Of a DNA stretch of 64,000 bases, positions 11,070-60,936 are shown in pieces. Numbering within the stretch: the stretch's first letter is position 1; every line of letters begins with the position of its first letter. The notes beneath the pieces are model-generated. The model was not told where the DNA came from, searched no databases, and was given only the letters and a program-made list of their open reading frames with translations. This DNA is from a virus. A program made the position numbers and the translations under genes. The DNA is taken from IMG/VR virus record IMGVR_UViG_2630968748_000003; one strand, given 5' to 3'.

Positions 11070-11960
11070 CTAGCTGGGAGAGTCTGTTCCTGCCTCTGCT
11101 GAAATAGTAGATACAATGATACCGTCCAAACGTTCTGGTAATAGCAAGAGAGCGTCTGCAACAACACTTTCGTATGATAGTGAGTCGTTCTTAGGTTCGT
11201 GAGCAATTCCAACGAGTCCTGTTTGATCGGTTGTAAAGTTGAATGCTTGTGAGAGTGATCCACCGTTCAATGTTGCAAAGTATAAGTTTAGGTTTTGTGA
11301 AGCTGTAACGTAAATTGTACCTGCTGGAACGTTGTTACTCATGATTAAAGTATTTACACCAAGGAAATTTTGAATGTAAGTCATACCGAATACTGTTTGA
11401 ACTGTTACAGGTGCTGAACCAATGTAATCATAAAAATCAATAGGGTTGACTAATGCAACAGAGGTAACGTCCTCGTCCTCGAATGCAACTGCGAGTTGAC
11501 CCAAGCCTTTTGCAAGTGATTGTTGAAAGCCTGCTCCTGTTGCCTTACCAGTTCCGTTTGCAAATTCGTCGAACAATTCTTTCTTGATATTCTTTTGAAT
11601 TGCTTTGAGTAGTTCGGAGTCTGTGTCTGCAACTGCACCTTGAAATCCACTTGATTGAATTGCTTCCGCAGTTACATTCTTGCGCCATTTGTTAAAGGTT
11701 AATTCCTTAGTGTCTGATAGTTCTTTTTTGACTTCTGATAATGGAATAACTTCGCCCTCTGCAACCTTTTCGTCTGCAAGAGTAACTGTTGACTTGTAAA
11801 TCTTCACTGTTGATCCTAATGCAAGAGCTTGTTTGCGTGTGATACCGAGAACTTTCATTAATGTTGTAAGTCCCTCGTTGAATTGTTCTACGAAATCAAC
11901 TGATTGTGGAATTAACTTGTCTTTTGTAACTGTCTTTTCGTCTACTGCCATGGTGTCCAT
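11070..11960 (-). CDS. Major capsid protein
   Basis: 296 aa after the scaffold gene; VAEGEVIPLS..KWRKNVTAEAIQ motif. Confidence 0.93.
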   Translation of the reverse strand: MDTMAVDEKTVTKDKLIPQSVDFVEQFNEGLTTLMKVLGITRKQALALGSTVKIYKSTVTLADEKVAEGEVIPLSEVKKELSDTKELTFNKWRKNVTAEAIQSSGFQGAVADTDSELLKAIQKNIKKELFDEFANGTGKATGAGFQQSLAKGLGQLAVAFEDEDVTSVALVNPIDFYDYIGSAPVTVQTVFGMTYIQNFLGVNTLIMSNNVPAGTIYVTASQNLNLYFATLNGGSLSQAFNFTTDQTGLVGIAHEPKNDSLSYESVVADALLLLPERLDGIIVSTISAEAGTDSPS

Positions 11961-11970
11961 GACCTCCTAA

Positions 11971-12594
11971 TTATTTATATTCGGGGAATAGGTTCATATT
12001 CTCCGCAATTTTTTCTTGTCGTTCTTGTGGATCAACGATTGCCATAATTTCATCACGTGTGATCGTGGAACGTTGACCCGAAATTCTTGGTGTTGCTCCC
12101 TTTGTTAGTTCCTTGGTTGTTTCGTCTTTGATTGATTGAATGAACTTAACCAATTTACCAACGTTGGTTTTTGTGCTGTCGGCTTGATCGGTTGTAACCA
12201 AGTCTAATGCCTCGTCGCTTGCTGTGATCCCTTGTTCTTTGAACATTGAACTAGCGGTATCACGCATTCGATAAGTTGCAAGTTCCGCCTTTGCTTTGTC
12301 TGCCTCGGCTTGTACTTGCTGTAATTGATACTTTTGTTTCTCGTCGGAGTTCATTTTTGCTAACTTCTTAGCCTCGTCAACTTCGTGTTGTCGTTTCTTT
12401 TCCGCTCTGTCCAACTTTTGTTGAACAATTGCGTTGACCTCCTCATCAGTGTATTTTTTTCCACCGGTCTTTTCTTGATCGTCGTTGTTATCTTTGTGAT
12501 CGTCTGTCTTATTTTCTTCCGGTGTTGCAACCCCTGTGTTTCGGTCTTGTTTGTTCAACTCTTCGGTTGATTGAGTATCTGTTTGGTTATCCAT
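11971..12594 (-). CDS. Capsid scaffolding protein (DUF4355-like)
   Basis: Acidic N-terminus, KKYTDEEVNAIV, coiled coil, TPR near the C-terminus. Confidence 0.9.
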   Translation of the reverse strand: MDNQTDTQSTEELNKQDRNTGVATPEENKTDDHKDNNDDQEKTGGKKYTDEEVNAIVQQKLDRAEKKRQHEVDEAKKLAKMNSDEKQKYQLQQVQAEADKAKAELATYRMRDTASSMFKEQGITASDEALDLVTTDQADSTKTNVGKLVKFIQSIKDETTKELTKGATPRISGQRSTITRDEIMAIVDPQERQEKIAENMNLFPEYK

Positions 12595-12610
12595 AAATAA
12601 ATTCTCCTAT

Positions 12611-12720
12611 CCATTAGCTTTTAACGTGGATCAATGCTTGCACATTCCATATCTTTTAAAGTGATAAATGCTTGCACTTTGCTACACCATAGCTTTTTAC
12701 GTCTTCAATGCTTGGACGTA
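12611..12720 (-). promoter_or_regulatory. Three tandem hairpin+AAAAG(C/A)UA RNA elements in the scaffold leader (copy 2 at 45069-45178)
   Basis: 6-bp stems with different sequences, conserved CAAGCAUU loop, one U-G pair valid only on the minus strand. Confidence 0.75.
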
Positions 12721-12755
12721 CAAAAAAAGCACTCAACCGTTTTGGTTGAATGCTT
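12721..12755 (-). terminator. Intrinsic terminator after the minor capsid gene
   Basis: AAGCATTCAACC/GGTTGAGTGCTT stem followed by a T run on the minus strand. Confidence 0.8.
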
Positions 12756-12861
12756 AATATTTGATACTTACAAAATCATATCTTTTGGATCAGTAGGTTT
12801 GAACGGTTGTTTGTTCAAAATTGCTTTTTCCATTTCGCTACATGCTTTTTCAATGTCGTTG

Positions 12862-13875
12862 TCAACGGAATAATTCGACGCCTTTCGCATTGGAAATATC
12901 TACATTTAATTTATTAGAATTTGCGTCAACTTTGCTACTTGTATCATTTTTTCGTTCCTTTGGTGTTGGTGGTTCGTTCTCCTCATCATCAACAGGAACT
13001 GTCGAGCAGCGACAATTGGGATGTACAGGAATATCTGGGGCGGGATTATCTCCACCTCCCATCAATTCAAATACTTTATTGTCTAGCGGTTTGCATACAG
13101 AACATGCTGTCGGTTCCGCAATCCATTTTACTTTGTCAAAATCATTTTCCATATACAAAATACGACTGTATTGGTCCGCAACCCTGGCTGACTCAGTTCT
13201 AGCAATCCGAGAAGCAGCATAACTAGCATTCTTTACCTTATCATCAATCAGCGACCGGAGCCGTGAACTCAATTGATCAGCATTCATACCCATTACCAAA
13301 CTACGTGTAATGATATTGTCTAGTTCGTTTTTCAACACGTCTTGGTTCGTCCAAATTCTGTCCGAGAACTTTGCTCCGTGATATGAACTATATATCAACG
13401 TTTCCATTCTCCGTTCTGTCATCTTTGGAACCGTCTCACCAAGTATTCCCGCTTGTCGTACACGCTCGTCCTTTAATTCAGTAACAAGTCGTTCACGAAG
13501 TTTGTCGCTTAACTCGTCTGTTTCCGCCAAGAGATCAACGCCAATTTGACTTTTAAGCATTTCCAAACGATTAATTCGCATAGTCGCATTGTAAATCCTC
13601 AACCTTTCATTTGCTTCGTCAGAGAAGTCTTGCTCCTCCACCATCTTTTTTGCGGTGTCTTGAAATCCTTTAACATCAAAGTTGGAGACTCGTTTTTTCG
13701 CTTCATCTATACTGATACCCTCTTTGTTTGCATATCGTGTATAAAATTGAGATATATCTTTATCTATTTTGTCTAATGATTTGTTATAGATTTCATCTAT
13801 CTGCTTGTCAAAATCAATGTCTTGTTTTTGTTGTTGATCTATCCACTCACGCTCTCGCTTTTCCCAATATCCCAT
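12862..13875 (-). CDS. Minor capsid protein, SPP1 gp7 / MuF family
   Basis: RIARTE, CSVC and PVHPNCRCS motifs; follows the portal. Confidence 0.93.
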   Translation of the reverse strand: MGYWEKREREWIDQQQKQDIDFDKQIDEIYNKSLDKIDKDISQFYTRYANKEGISIDEAKKRVSNFDVKGFQDTAKKMVEEQDFSDEANERLRIYNATMRINRLEMLKSQIGVDLLAETDELSDKLRERLVTELKDERVRQAGILGETVPKMTERRMETLIYSSYHGAKFSDRIWTNQDVLKNELDNIITRSLVMGMNADQLSSRLRSLIDDKVKNASYAASRIARTESARVADQYSRILYMENDFDKVKWIAEPTACSVCKPLDNKVFELMGGGDNPAPDIPVHPNCRCSTVPVDDEENEPPTPKERKNDTSSKVDANSNKLNVDISNAKGVELFR

Positions 13876-13877
13876 AA

Positions 13878-15248
13878 TTATTCACCTTGTTCACTGGTTG
13901 TTGAATTGTTAAATCCGTAATCAGTTGCAGGGTTATTGTTAACTGCGTTTCTTGTTTGTTCGTTTTGTTCTTCTTGAATGCGAGTTATTTCCGCCTTAGG
14001 ATCACTGACAACTGACAGCGTAGACAATGCGGTTTCAAGTGAGGTAATGCCGATCAAGTTCTTTGCTGTTTCTGCTTCCTCTGCGACGTTGTTCGGAATA
14101 TTACGGGTAAATCTGAACGTTATGTCCATTGGTTCGCCATAGGGCAATTGAACTCCTAATACTGAAAACATTTCACGTAAGTTCTGTGTAAATTTACGTT
14201 CTTTGTTAACAGCAAGGTTACTCATTGATTGCATTTTGTATGCTAACGCCGTTCCCGAGGTTGAACTCCCGAATACGTCATCACTAATATTCGCAATCAT
14301 ACTAATTTGATAAATCATTGTCGTTAGTCGATTGAGGATATTTTCTTGATTACCGTCTGCGTCTGGTTTCTCGAGGAACTTTGCGTCAACGTCGTATTCT
14401 TCACTAGCGTTTTTAGTCACGATCAAACGGTTCTGTTTGATATTGAGTTGTTCTTCCTCCGTCAAATCAAAGTTCTTTAGGAACAAATAAGCGTGTGCAA
14501 AGTAATCAATATCATCTAGCTTGGCACTAAATGCCTTGTCGTATGCGTGAATTAATGTAATGACTGGATCAAACACTCCCATGCGTTCCTCATTATCGAA
14601 GAACTCGACCGCAGGCACTTTGCCTTTGAACACCAATAGTTTTGAGTCTGTGATCCTAATATCATCAATATAAGTGAACGAGTCGGCTCTATTTGAATAG
14701 TATGCCGTTCCTGTAATCTCGTTCTTTGCATTCTTGCCATATGTAACAAAGGCAATAGGCTTTTTGTTGATCGTGTCATCATAAATCATGAACGACTGAT
14801 CCGGAGAGAGAACGGCTGTTTTTAGTTCGCTGTTCTCGTTGTTGTATGCCAACATGAACGCTTTGCCGTAGATACTCGACTGCTTGGAAACCTCTGCAAG
14901 TTTGTCAACGAATGAATTATTTCTGATCCACGCTTGTAGAACTTTGTCCTTGTCTTGATCGTCCACTTTGATAGTTGGTGGAATACCAATAAAATAACCA
15001 TTCAATGTGTCAACGAGGTTCTTTGGAAAGTTGACAATCAAATGGTTGTTATCTTGCATATTTTGAGCTATCTCGTCATCAAAGGCTTTGGTTTGCCCTT
15101 TATATTCTCGTAGCTTGTCTTTGTACTGCTCTTCGTAGTTTGTTCTGTGATAGTTGATGAAACTTCGTAAATCTTCCCGAGTGAACTCTTCGTCTACTGG
15201 AAAGAGGTACTCGTCGTTATCACTGACAATTCCTCTTTGTAATAGCAT
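13878..15248 (-). CDS. Portal protein, SPP1 family
   Basis: 456 aa; VNFPKNLVDTLNGYFIGIPP and SSTSGTALAYK motifs. Confidence 0.95.
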   Translation of the reverse strand: MLLQRGIVSDNDEYLFPVDEEFTREDLRSFINYHRTNYEEQYKDKLREYKGQTKAFDDEIAQNMQDNNHLIVNFPKNLVDTLNGYFIGIPPTIKVDDQDKDKVLQAWIRNNSFVDKLAEVSKQSSIYGKAFMLAYNNENSELKTAVLSPDQSFMIYDDTINKKPIAFVTYGKNAKNEITGTAYYSNRADSFTYIDDIRITDSKLLVFKGKVPAVEFFDNEERMGVFDPVITLIHAYDKAFSAKLDDIDYFAHAYLFLKNFDLTEEEQLNIKQNRLIVTKNASEEYDVDAKFLEKPDADGNQENILNRLTTMIYQISMIANISDDVFGSSTSGTALAYKMQSMSNLAVNKERKFTQNLREMFSVLGVQLPYGEPMDITFRFTRNIPNNVAEEAETAKNLIGITSLETALSTLSVVSDPKAEITRIQEEQNEQTRNAVNNNPATDYGFNNSTTSEQGE

Positions 15249-15258
15249 TTGCTACCTC

Positions 15259-16515
15259 CTAAAATAATAAGTTCCTGTGGACTTTCGCTTGAACCTTTCC
15301 CTTGCCGTTGATTTCTTCGACAGCATATCTCGTTGCGTCTGCCCAATGGTTGAAAAGGTCAACAGGCTTGTTTGTGTACTCTCCTGTTTTCTTGTCCTTT
15401 TGCCATGTGTAGTTCTCTAGTCCCTCAATGACTTTTTGACAGCGGTCATCAACGATCAACTCGTACTGTTGCATGAATTGAATACCTTGAATGATTGAGT
15501 CTTTGCCTTTGTTGGACTTCCGAACACGTTCAATTCCGTTACGCCGTAGTTCATCAATACTCTTTGGTTCTGCGGCGTCGGCTGTGATTACTTCTTTTGA
15601 ATATCCCATTGACTTGATTACGTCGGCTATTTGATTGTTCATCATTCCCGTTTTGCTGTATTCCTCAATGAAATACATTTTTTTGTTCTTGTCGTCCACC
15701 TTTACATGAATAAAGAACGACGGGTCATTCGTATAACCGAAATCAAGTCCGAACATGCTCGGAACGCTTTGTAGTTCGGGAGAGTCACTGTTCAAGCGAC
15801 GAACTTCGTAATTAGGAAAGATTAGTTTGTCGAGTGTTGCAAACTCTCCAAGAGCATATATTCGATACCAAACGGGGTTTGTTGTTTTGAACTTCTCGAT
15901 ATTTCTCCGAGTTTGATCGTCAACAAACTTGTTATCTTTGTAGCTCGATTGATGAATGATCGTGTCCGGCTGTTTATTTTTGAAGAAATACTGATAAACC
16001 CAATTAGCTTTTGATACCGGGTTGAACATTAGAAATATTTGCTTGTTAGAGTGTTTCCTTTCACGTACACGCAATGTAAGTTGCTCGTAGTCCTCTTGAC
16101 TGAACTCGGTTGCCTCTTCCATTACAACGTCCGACAGTCCCTTGATTGACTTAATCTTTTCTTGATCGTCCATGCCTTTGAAAAGGAACATTGCTCCATT
16201 CGGCAAAGTGATCTCGAAATTTGTCTTGTTGATCTTGCAATAAGGCAACAACTTCCATTCGGATAGTCGAATAACAACGTCCTCATAGATTGAGTCACGT
16301 AATCGACTCCCAACCTTTCGGAGGAACAATACTTTGCGAGGGTGTTTCCATTCTTTCAAGGCTTTCAATACTACCTTTTGAACAACGCCGTGTGACTTTC
16401 CACTTGCTGCTCCCCCGTACCAAACCTCTGTAAAGTGTTCATAGTCATTCAAACTGTCAAAGACTGATCGGTTGAACTCTTTTTCGGGGTGCATGAATTT
16501 AATATCAATTGTCAT
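15259..16515 (-). CDS. terL: Terminase large subunit, PBSX family
   Basis: YGGAASGKS Walker A, VVMEEA Walker B, GLDFGY and HWADATRY nuclease motifs; start moved to MTIDIK. Confidence 0.95.
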   Translation of the reverse strand: MTIDIKFMHPEKEFNRSVFDSLNDYEHFTEVWYGGAASGKSHGVVQKVVLKALKEWKHPRKVLFLRKVGSRLRDSIYEDVVIRLSEWKLLPYCKINKTNFEITLPNGAMFLFKGMDDQEKIKSIKGLSDVVMEEATEFSQEDYEQLTLRVRERKHSNKQIFLMFNPVSKANWVYQYFFKNKQPDTIIHQSSYKDNKFVDDQTRRNIEKFKTTNPVWYRIYALGEFATLDKLIFPNYEVRRLNSDSPELQSVPSMFGLDFGYTNDPSFFIHVKVDDKNKKMYFIEEYSKTGMMNNQIADVIKSMGYSKEVITADAAEPKSIDELRRNGIERVRKSNKGKDSIIQGIQFMQQYELIVDDRCQKVIEGLENYTWQKDKKTGEYTNKPVDLFNHWADATRYAVEEINGKGKVQAKVHRNLLF

Positions 16516-16927
16516 CTTCTGGATAATCTCCAATATCAATTTCAATATTGGTTCGGTTCGTTGTGTTGACGTTATCAGTAAACAAGGCATGTCGTTTCCC
16601 GATCAACTCCGCAGCCTTGATCCTGTCTTTTGCTGTGACAGGCACGTTCTCGTACAAACCTTTTGCGGTTGCCACCGTTTCCTTTGTCTGTCCTCGCATG
16701 GTCTTTGATAGGAACTCCATTACTTCGGTTGCGTCGGCAATGCTTTCACTGTGCATTGAGTCCACCTGCTCTTGTATAGCCGATTTAATGTCATCTTTTG
16801 TAAGCAATCTATTTGCCTGTTGTCTTGCCGATTTCTCTGCGTAACCGGCTCTTAACGCTGCCTGTGTTGCATTTAAATCTTTGATGTATTCATCAACGAA
16901 TTTCTTTTGTTGTGCATTCAAACTCAA
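16505..16927 (-). CDS. terS: Terminase small subunit
   Basis: QKKFVDEYIKDLNATQAALRAGY motif; TTG start with GGAGGTG RBS. Confidence 0.95.
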   Translation of the reverse strand: MSLNAQQKKFVDEYIKDLNATQAALRAGYAEKSARQQANRLLTKDDIKSAIQEQVDSMHSESIADATEVMEFLSKTMRGQTKETVATAKGLYENVPVTAKDRIKAAELIGKRHALFTDNVNTTNRTNIEIDIGDYPEDDN

Positions 16928-28425: not shown

Positions 28426-28455
28426 AATGTCCAAACACTGATGACAATAAAAGCT
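28426..28455 (+). promoter_or_regulatory. Single copy of the hairpin+AAAAGCT motif in the ltp leader
   Basis: TGTC-CAAACACTGAT-GACA-AT-AAAAGCT, same spacing as the scaffold elements. Confidence 0.6.
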
Positions 28456-28479
28456 GACTATTGGGAGGAATTACAAATT

Positions 28480-45052: not shown

Positions 45053-45319
45053 AAATAAATTCTCCTATCCATTAGCTTTTAACGTGGATCAATGCTTGCA
45101 CATTCCATATCTTTTAAAGTGATAAATGCTTGCACTTTGCTACACCATAGCTTTTTACGTCTTCAATGCTTGGACGTACAAAAAAAGCACTCAACCGTTT
45201 TGGTTGAATGCTTAATATTTGATACTTACAAAATCATATCTTTTGGATCAGTAGGTTTGAACGGTTGTTTGTTCAAAATTGCTTTTTCCATTTCGCTACA
45301 TGCTTTTTCAATGTCGTTG

Positions 45320-60879: not shown

Positions 60880-60936
60880 TTTAATGTCCAAACACTGATG
60901 ACAATAAAAGCTGACTATTGGGAGGAATTACAAATT

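Follow-up and report, generated by a model that had tools for sequence, protein, structure and literature searches.

Tandem leader pseudoknots upstream of DUF4355 scaffold genes in phages of Bacillota

The virus record IMGVR_UViG_2630968748_000003, a stretch of 64,000 nucleotides (nt) referred to here as the window, was found to carry an array of three ~35-nt units on its minus (mRNA) strand at 12720-12611, between an intrinsic terminator and the Shine-Dalgarno (SD) sequence of a head scaffold gene. Each unit is an H-type pseudoknot and not a plain hairpin, the loop C-A-U-U-G being paired with the tail C-U-A-U-G. The gene downstream of the array encodes a 207-amino-acid protein of the DUF4355/Gp46 family (PF14265 in Pfam, E 1.5e-22; phrog_172, head scaffolding), and it is directly followed by the gene for the major capsid protein (phrog_544, major head protein). 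Judged from sequence comparison, the units appear to represent a new, widespread and uncatalogued family of cis-acting leader pseudoknots, and the array probably sets the amount of head-building protein made.

Fold of the units and covariation of both helices

From 5' to 3', a unit comprises stem 1 (S1, 3-6 base pairs (bp)), loop 1 (L1) with the sequence CAAG, the 5' strand of stem 2 (S2), loop 2 (L2, an A plus 1-3 nt), the 3' strand of S1, an A-rich loop 3 (L3) ending in AAAAG, and the 3' strand of S2. There are five positions in S2, the fourth being a conserved U.U mismatch. In the modelled fold the A-rich L3 would be placed for the minor groove of stem 1, as in compact H-type pseudoknots.

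The second helix was deduced from the loop and tail, which vary together in a Watson-Crick manner. Loops of the form ..GCAUUG.. are found with the tail GCUAUGG, ..GCAUUU.. with GAUAUGG, ..GCAUUC.. with UGUAUGG and ..GCAUUA.. with AUUAUGG; changes at other positions of the helix are seen in ..GCGUGG.. with GCUACGG, ..GCGUGU.. with GAUACGG and ..GCAUGU.. with GGUAUGG, and prophage copies add ..GCUUGG.. with GCUAAGG and ..GCUUGA.. with CUUUAAGG. Covariation in S2 is visible even among the three units of the window (CAUUG/CUAUG, CAUUU/AUAUG and CAUUG/UAAUG).

Both helices were counted in an alignment of 72 distinct units from viral contigs. Paired cells amounted to 78.7%, against 63.3% in shuffled alignments, and the covariation score was 0.394, against 0.129 after shuffling and 0.03-0.08 with slid partners; neither observed value was reached by any of 500 shuffles. 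Compensatory changes thus occur in both helices, with slid controls 5-10 times lower. Prophages in cellular genomes supplied 73 distinct units as an independent set; aligned with a covariance model derived from the first alignment, these gave a score of 0.385 against 0.126. In the viral alignment the three inner pairs of stem 1 are ~99% paired, by way of CG, GC, UA, AU and GU. The S2 pair 15-30 is GC in 51 units, UA in 17, UG in two, and AU and CG in one each, and is unpaired in none of the 72, while the S2 pair 12-33 is AU in 60 and GC in 10. Across 128 distinct units from phages and prophages, G.U occurs 63 times and A.C 13 times, so the structure is read as RNA on the mRNA strand.

Two other pairings were considered and rejected. 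An apical CAA/UUG mini-helix, which would correspond to a plain-hairpin reading, shows no compensatory changes, and its closing pair is unpaired in 21 of the 72 units. Pairing of S2 with the tail of a neighbouring unit is contradicted by leaders of mixed units (phiFL3A and the loci L029 and L047), where each loop matches its own downstream tail.

An initial annotation of the same DNA had described a triple hairpin array with covarying stems, conserved loops and A-rich tails, and a U-G pair that works only on the coding strand, and had named covariation among homologues as a check. The three unit sequences, followed by AUAGGAG and the start codon, were read as described on the minus strand. The three repeats are confirmed, the plain hairpins being replaced by pseudoknots; the stems differ yet stay paired, and they covary among homologues in both of the sets above. 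Loops and tails are conserved as had been noted, but they also pair with each other, which goes beyond mere conservation. The U.G pair in unit 3 is real, and an RNA-level element adjoining the ribosome-binding site of the scaffold gene, as then proposed, is borne out by the two-helix covariation and the strand bias.

The positions of the units and of neighbouring features are collected in Table 1. The S2 closing pair of unit 2 is U-A, in place of the G-C of units 1 and 3. In unit 3, S1 (AAUGUG/CACGUU) contains the one U.G pair, the S2 strands are CAUUG (12636-12632) and UAAUG (12616-12612), where a 1-nt insertion in the tail gives five pairs, and the 3' end of the unit abuts the SD. A 34-nt period was detected in the array by Tandem Repeats Finder. 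As the window consists of two tandem copies of a 32.47-kb prophage (1-31035 against 32471-63492, 99.93% identity), the pattern AAGCATT-N8-12-AAAAGNTATGG occurs twice in the array and twice in the duplicated copy, with a chance expectation of 0.00 per window. In the 2.59-Mb genome to which the window belongs, the six units of the two prophage copies gave the only significant covariance-model scores.

Table 1 Features of the window. Unit sequences are given in mRNA sense.
Feature	Position	Strand	Details
Pseudoknot unit 1	12720-12687	minus	UACGUC-CAAGCAUUGAA-GACGUA-AAAAGCUAUGG; covariance model 49.5 bits, E 4e-13
Unit 1, S1	12720-12715 with 12703-12698	minus	
Unit 1, loops	L1 12714-12711; L3 12697-12693	minus	L1 CAAG; L2 AA; L3 AAAAG
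Unit 1, S2	12710-12706 with 12692-12688	minus	5' strand CAUUG; 3' strand CUAUG
Pseudoknot unit 2	12680-12647	minus	AAAGUG-CAAGCAUUUAU-CACUUU-AAAAGAUAUGG; 55.3 bits, E 6e-15
Unit 2, helices	S2 12670-12666 with 12652-12648	minus	S1 AAAGUG/CACUUU; S2 CAUUU with AUAUG
Pseudoknot unit 3	12646-12611	minus	AAUGUG-CAAGCAUUGAUC-CACGUU-AAAAGCUAAUGG; 43.5 bits, E 1.4e-6; in another search 29.9 bits, E 2e-7
Intrinsic terminator hairpin (predicted)	12755-12727	minus	12-bp stem, 5-nt loop; U-run 12726-12722; ends 6 nt before unit 1
SD and start of scaffold gene	12608-12604; 12594-12592	minus	AGGAG, 9-nt spacer, ATG
Scaffold gene	11971-12594	minus	DUF4355/Gp46 family
Major capsid gene	11070-11960	minus	
40-codon open reading frame	12768-12890	minus	between Mu F-like gene and terminator
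Mu F-like minor head protein	12862-13875	minus	
SPP1-type portal	13878-15248	minus	
Large terminase	15259-16590	minus	
Diverged unit	28426-28464	plus	AAUGUC-CAAACACUGAU-GACAAU-AAAAGCUGACUAUUGG; before SD of ltp-like gene
Identical second copy of the three-unit array	45069-45178	minus	in the duplicated prophage copy

The hairpin upstream of unit 1 is predicted to be an intrinsic terminator, with five G-C pairs out of 12 and a U7 tract made up of the last two stem pairs and five free U residues. Its placement directly before the array, with AAGCAUU in its 5' arm, is as the initial annotation had it. This heptamer was found in the terminator arm of the window and of L136, a prophage of Companilactobacillus furfuricola with a near-identical three-unit array, but not in other phages, and its presence there appears to be lineage-specific. 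In the same two prophages only, the terminator 5' arm (UUAAGCAUUCAACC, window 12727-12760) resembles the unit loop (CAAGCAUUGAAG). The arm may be the remnant of a fourth unit.

Distribution and anatomy of the leaders

When phage genomes were searched by sensitive blastn, the array alone was matched and the flanking coding sequence was not. Matches were found in phages of Latilactobacillus, Enterococcus (EH-TP1, phiFL3A/B), Lactococcus (TP712) and Streptococcus (many Javan prophages), all of them directly 5' of an annotated scaffold gene, while the upstream neighbour varied and was a head morphogenesis protein gene, a hypothetical gene, an antirepressor gene or a gene on the opposite strand. 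The array is more conserved than the genes around it and, placed immediately 5' of the ribosome-binding site, is under strong purifying selection.

An exact-pattern scan of viral contigs gave at least 103 stretches, of which ~85 are true leaders, and a tighter pattern was run over one genome per prokaryotic species; ~15 viral and ~13 genome matches, being chance occurrences inside open reading frames (ORFs) of unrelated organisms, were excluded. The genome scan located prophage copies in Streptococcus, Enterococcus, Vagococcus, Tetragenococcus, Granulicatella, several genera of Lactobacillaceae, Weissella, Salinicoccus (Staphylococcaceae) and Erysipelotrichales, and in the Clostridia in Acutalibacteraceae, Peptococcaceae and Anaerofustis. 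No match was obtained with a covariance model (R2) over 150 Bacilli genomes, a search that in each genome was confined to the scoring of ~46 first-look candidates out of over 1000. The downstream protein belonged to DUF4355 wherever it was tested against Pfam, and 74 of 77 downstream proteins fell into one BLAST cluster.

Among 127 distinct leaders, the pseudoknot is present once in 63, twice in 43 and three times in 21. The last pseudoknot ends 0-3 nt 5' of the SD in 47 leaders, typically with the sequence CUAUGGAAGGAG, so that its terminal G residues are able to lengthen the SD helix. Its end is 26-33 nt away from the SD in 76 leaders, where the interval is occupied by a stable hairpin of the plain kind, frequently capped by a GNRA loop; Streptococcus phages, for instance, have AGUCG-GGGA-CGACU and then UUAAAAAUAGGAGG. 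Of the 127 leaders, 77 have a terminator-like hairpin and U-run ahead of the first unit, with 5-9 nt between the end of the hairpin stem and stem 1 in 63 of them; in leaders that have no such hairpin the first unit begins at the end of the upstream ORF. By eye, the stop codon of the upstream minor-head ORF in three Clostridia prophages (L157, L193 and L154) is apparently a UGA in the loop of the first pseudoknot (GCAUUGA). In this arrangement terminating ribosomes would unfold the first unit.

The architecture extends to leaders of unrelated sequence. In the leader of gp46 of the staphylococcal phage 80alpha, the founding DUF4355 member (positions 930-1012 of locus L199), a terminator-like hairpin is followed by a pseudoknot and then by a small hairpin and the SD. 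The pseudoknot, AUGUC-CAAAA-CGUGCU-GAU-GACAU-AAAA-AGCACG, has the same layout with a six-pair S2 (CGUGCU/AGCACG) of unrelated sequence, and Rfam 15 cmscan at E up to 10 gave no match to this leader. The leaders of DUF4355 genes drawn at random from 300 Bacillota genomes were also inspected. Three were 80alpha-like (GCC-CAAAA-CGUGG...CCAUG), and three had a compact form, CGGC-AA-CGUGC-GCCG-GUUAA-GCACG, with CGGU-A-CGCAC-ACCG-GUCAA-GUGCG in another genome; the two compact sequences are mutually compensatory, with the S2 pairs CGUGC/GCACG and CGCAC/GUGCG. A further five (L200, L202, L203, L204 and L206) were of a different structure, UUGC-hairpin-GGGGCAA directly 5' of the SD. The examples are few but all concordant, and suggest that genes of the DUF4355 scaffold family in general have a structured leader, if not always a pseudoknot, immediately 5' of the SD. 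The leaders with UUGC-hairpin-GGGGCAA go with a DUF4355 subfamily of N-terminus MTLEE/MSLEQ.

Related units also occur before genes of the lysogeny module. Apart from the scaffold arrays, the only significant covariance-model match in the window was at 28426-28455 on the plus strand (22.6 bits, E 3.5e-5 to 7e-5). This diverged unit, with a copy near 60883, runs into the SD of a gene for an Ltp-like membrane protein (ATG 28480). An unfiltered search of relatives of the ltp-like gene in viral contigs revealed ten more units, all on the coding strand and all intergenic, in the lysogeny modules of L232, L238, L239, L240, L264 and L265, sometimes before two successive genes; two of the ten precede the gene after the ltp-like gene. 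Nine lie just 5' of an SD; after the tenth (L240, 1111-1149) comes a hairpin in place of an SD. The ltp-type units share stem 1, the loop CAA...CUGAn and the tail UUAAAAGCUGA. Their S2 is reduced to an invariant C-G, U.U and G-C and, having no variation, does not lend itself to an assessment of covariation.

Possible function and relation to known RNA elements

The array was compared with all 4227 families of Rfam 15 (cmscan, E up to 10, window 12300-13100), a check that the initial annotation had suggested. Nothing was matched on the array; sub-threshold matches fell on the terminator only, the best with 18.7 bits against a gathering score of 50. Full-text literature searches yielded no description of the motif.

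The reading that we favour, tentatively and as something short of probable, is that of a protein-independent cis-acting cassette that guards the scaffold-capsid mRNA on its 5' side and displays the ribosome-binding site. The mechanism that we infer would begin in the AU-rich spacer downstream of the terminator-like hairpin, where the transcript would be cut, or decay from upstream. The pseudoknots would block RNase J1, the 5'-to-3' exonuclease of Bacillota, and would keep the neighbouring A-rich SD region clear of competing structure; additional copies would act as redundant roadblocks. The scaffold-capsid segment would thereby have a longer life, and the most abundant pair of head proteins would be synthesized at a high level although the long operon begins with genes required at a low level; ltp-type units would play an equivalent role for genes expressed from the prophage. 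The layout, namely a hairpin, a short U/A-rich spacer, compact pseudoknots and a strong SD, fits the operon-maturation scheme of Bacillota. In this scheme RNase Y cuts in AU-rich single-stranded spacers, and in B. subtilis cggR-gapA and glnRA the cut lies just 5' of a 'stabilizing hairpin' that shields the downstream isoform from RNase J1 (PMC11780869). Like the phage array, these B. subtilis structures are intercistronic and placed after a poorly needed upstream gene, an AU-rich spacer being followed by a stable structure (PMC11780869); they differ in being simple hairpins with no conserved sequence.

Several points weigh against the protective cassette. The effects of array members on 5' ends, half-life and translation are inferences, and a halt of RNase J1 at simple H-type pseudoknots is a supposition. 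The unpaired CAAG, A and AAAAG are conserved more strictly than a roadblock seems to need, a strictness that would fit tertiary contacts and equally a specific partner. In ~745 kb of phage loci no copy of the motif turned up ahead of further abundantly expressed late genes, for instance the one for the major tail protein, and ~40% of the leaders have no upstream terminator-like hairpin. In four RNA-labelled runs the leader is covered only by short contigs of related phages, from which ends and strands are unreadable.

The main rival, which we regard as unlikely, is a translational operator, whereby free DUF4355 scaffold would bind the pseudoknots multivalently and repress translation or destabilise its own mRNA. 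Every canonical array found is 5' of a DUF4355 gene, the RNA sequence classes track scaffold subfamilies, and the leader DNA is conserved where flanking coding sequence is not; moreover, the last unit touches the SD, multiple copies suit an oligomeric protein, and conservation of the unpaired bases is very strict. There are also precedents. Phage T4 gp32 represses its own synthesis through a leader pseudoknot, and the scaffold of P22 reportedly autoregulates its synthesis. The array resembles the T4 gene 32 operator in that H-type pseudoknots occupy the leader of a phage gene for a protein required in stoichiometric quantity, in the A/U-rich stretch that leads from the pseudoknot to the ribosome-binding site, and in a presumed post-transcriptional action; the two have no sequence relation, the array consists of one to three tandem copies in Gram-positive phages, and its units also precede unrelated genes, while the T4 binder is gp32 itself. 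With P22 gp8 the array shares the function of the scaffold gene, the need to match scaffold to coat protein and presumed control at the mRNA, but no cis-element has been defined for P22, whose scaffold lies outside DUF4355. The ltp-type copies in particular argue against autoregulation by DUF4355, as their host genes are expressed in lysogens, at a time when scaffold is not synthesized. Units before non-scaffold lysogeny genes favour a leader cassette that acts in cis and is portable, over an operator dedicated to scaffold. The SD-proximal element is, in addition, often a plain hairpin and not the conserved unit, the RNA hardly varies from host to host whereas the scaffold sequences have diverged strongly, and the gene association is explicable by co-inheritance. 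RNA-binding activity is not known for the DUF4355 family. Mutants of gp46 that escape CBASS (PMC10686824) have no bearing on RNA binding. The initial annotation had interpreted the array as a protein-binding or translation-control element that sets scaffold and capsid output; its RNA nature and translation-proximal control hold, while the scaffold-specific role is partly undercut by the units before other genes. It is likewise doubtful, though worth stating, that the array is a new class of sensing pseudoknot coupling scaffold synthesis to head assembly or cell state, with free scaffold, another conserved factor or a small ligand as partner, or else the first bacterial or phage counterpart of the flavivirus tandem exonuclease-resistant RNAs, stopping RNase J1.

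Other explanations are improbable to differing degrees. A riboswitch-like pseudoknot sensing a small ligand, with tandem copies for a cooperative response, would account for the strictly conserved junction and loop nucleotides and for an S2 3' strand that runs into an extended SD (GGAAGGAG), and the architecture is that of small pseudoknot riboswitches of the preQ1-I and SAM-II type. Like preQ1-I (RF00522), a unit is ~34 nt long with a short stem 1, an A-rich tail that lies along stem 1 and base-pairs with the loop through its 3' end, and a place beside the SD. The loop sequences nevertheless differ from those of preQ1-I, S2 has five positions with the conserved U.U mismatch, the copies are in tandem and the SD-proximal one is often a plain hairpin; cmscan matched neither RF00522 nor another Rfam riboswitch to the array, with E values allowed up to 10, and the downstream gene is that of a DUF4355 scaffold and not one of queuosine synthesis or transport. 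A structural-protein context suggests no metabolite, the single pseudoknot of most Streptococcus phages is parted from the SD by another hairpin, and loop sequences differ between classes, unlike a fixed ligand pocket; we consider this reading improbable. The same grade is given to a processive antitermination RNA, similar to HK022 put or the B. subtilis EAR, that would modify polymerase to pass later terminators of the late operon. A mid-operon position in a long late transcription unit, tandem small structured units and frequent terminator-like hairpins nearby would suit it, but the fixed juxtaposition of the last unit to the SD points to translation or mRNA decay, the array stands after and not before the nearest terminator, and the lysogeny-module units sit before single short genes. 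An anti-defence decoy or trans-acting small RNA, mimicking a type III antitoxin (ToxI/antiQ) and neutralising an abortive-infection endoribonuclease of the host, is very improbable. Its repeats would be ~35 nt long, in tandem and each folded as a pseudoknot in phage-related contexts, as here, and pseudo-ToxI repeats are reportedly encoded by phages; yet the array keeps a constant position before one gene family from Streptococcus to Clostridia, has no promoter of its own, no neighbouring toxin gene and no Rfam match to ToxI, and is followed by a scaffold gene instead of a ToxN/AbiQ endoribonuclease. The order in the window is terminator, repeats and scaffold gene, which is not the ToxI-type layout, and the units of one array are non-identical, with differing stems. 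The least credible of all is a DNA-level site, with the direct repeats AAGCNNTG serving a late activator or forming a late promoter. Loop and tail do share AAGC-type words 16-22 bp apart, and the region after a terminator is one where a new promoter would be useful, but the two-helix compensatory changes and the asymmetry of G.U over A.C would be left unexplained by DNA binding, and in some phages the first unit begins at, or runs over, the preceding gene's stop codon. A promoter within the array was rejected, as a scan of 12611-12760 on the minus strand gave no sigma-70-like site; across the leaders there were no conserved -10 or -35 elements, the post-terminator spacer included, which is not kept as a -10 element.

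How the scaffold-to-coat ratio is set in tailed phages is an old unsolved question, and the autoregulation of P22, known since 1985, has to our knowledge lacked a defined RNA element. A compact and strongly conserved RNA fold is now defined at the scaffold control point. As it is carried by the tractable 80alpha, Lactococcus phage TP712, Enterococcus phage phiFL3 and prophages of S. pyogenes and S. pneumoniae, the question is directly testable with compensatory mutants. The uncatalogued family across Bacillota phages joins a short list of phage cis-regulatory RNAs and, if the fold is a portable expression or stability cassette, it might serve as a compact building block for expressing genes in Gram-positive bacteria.

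Gene neighbourhood and minor observations

Genes for the large terminase, portal and minor head protein precede the array on the same strand (Table 1). The 40-codon ORF between the Mu F-like gene and the terminator had no match in Pfam or PHROG; a sigma-70-like site, TTCAAA-17-TATGAT (12803-12775), is located within it. Owing to the tandem prophage pair, every feature of the window is present twice, and according to the genome record the pair spans the ends of a single 2.59-Mb contig.

Many of the scaffolds associated with the leaders start with ...NLQFFAE (L003, L029, L045, L068 and others), a motif that is absent from the scaffold of the window and that we take to be the one cut by the ribosomal-protein-L27 protease Prp, known from 80alpha. 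In phiFL3A a gene for a DUF464 (Prp-like) protein lies two genes 5' of the scaffold gene, just before the Mu F-like head gene.

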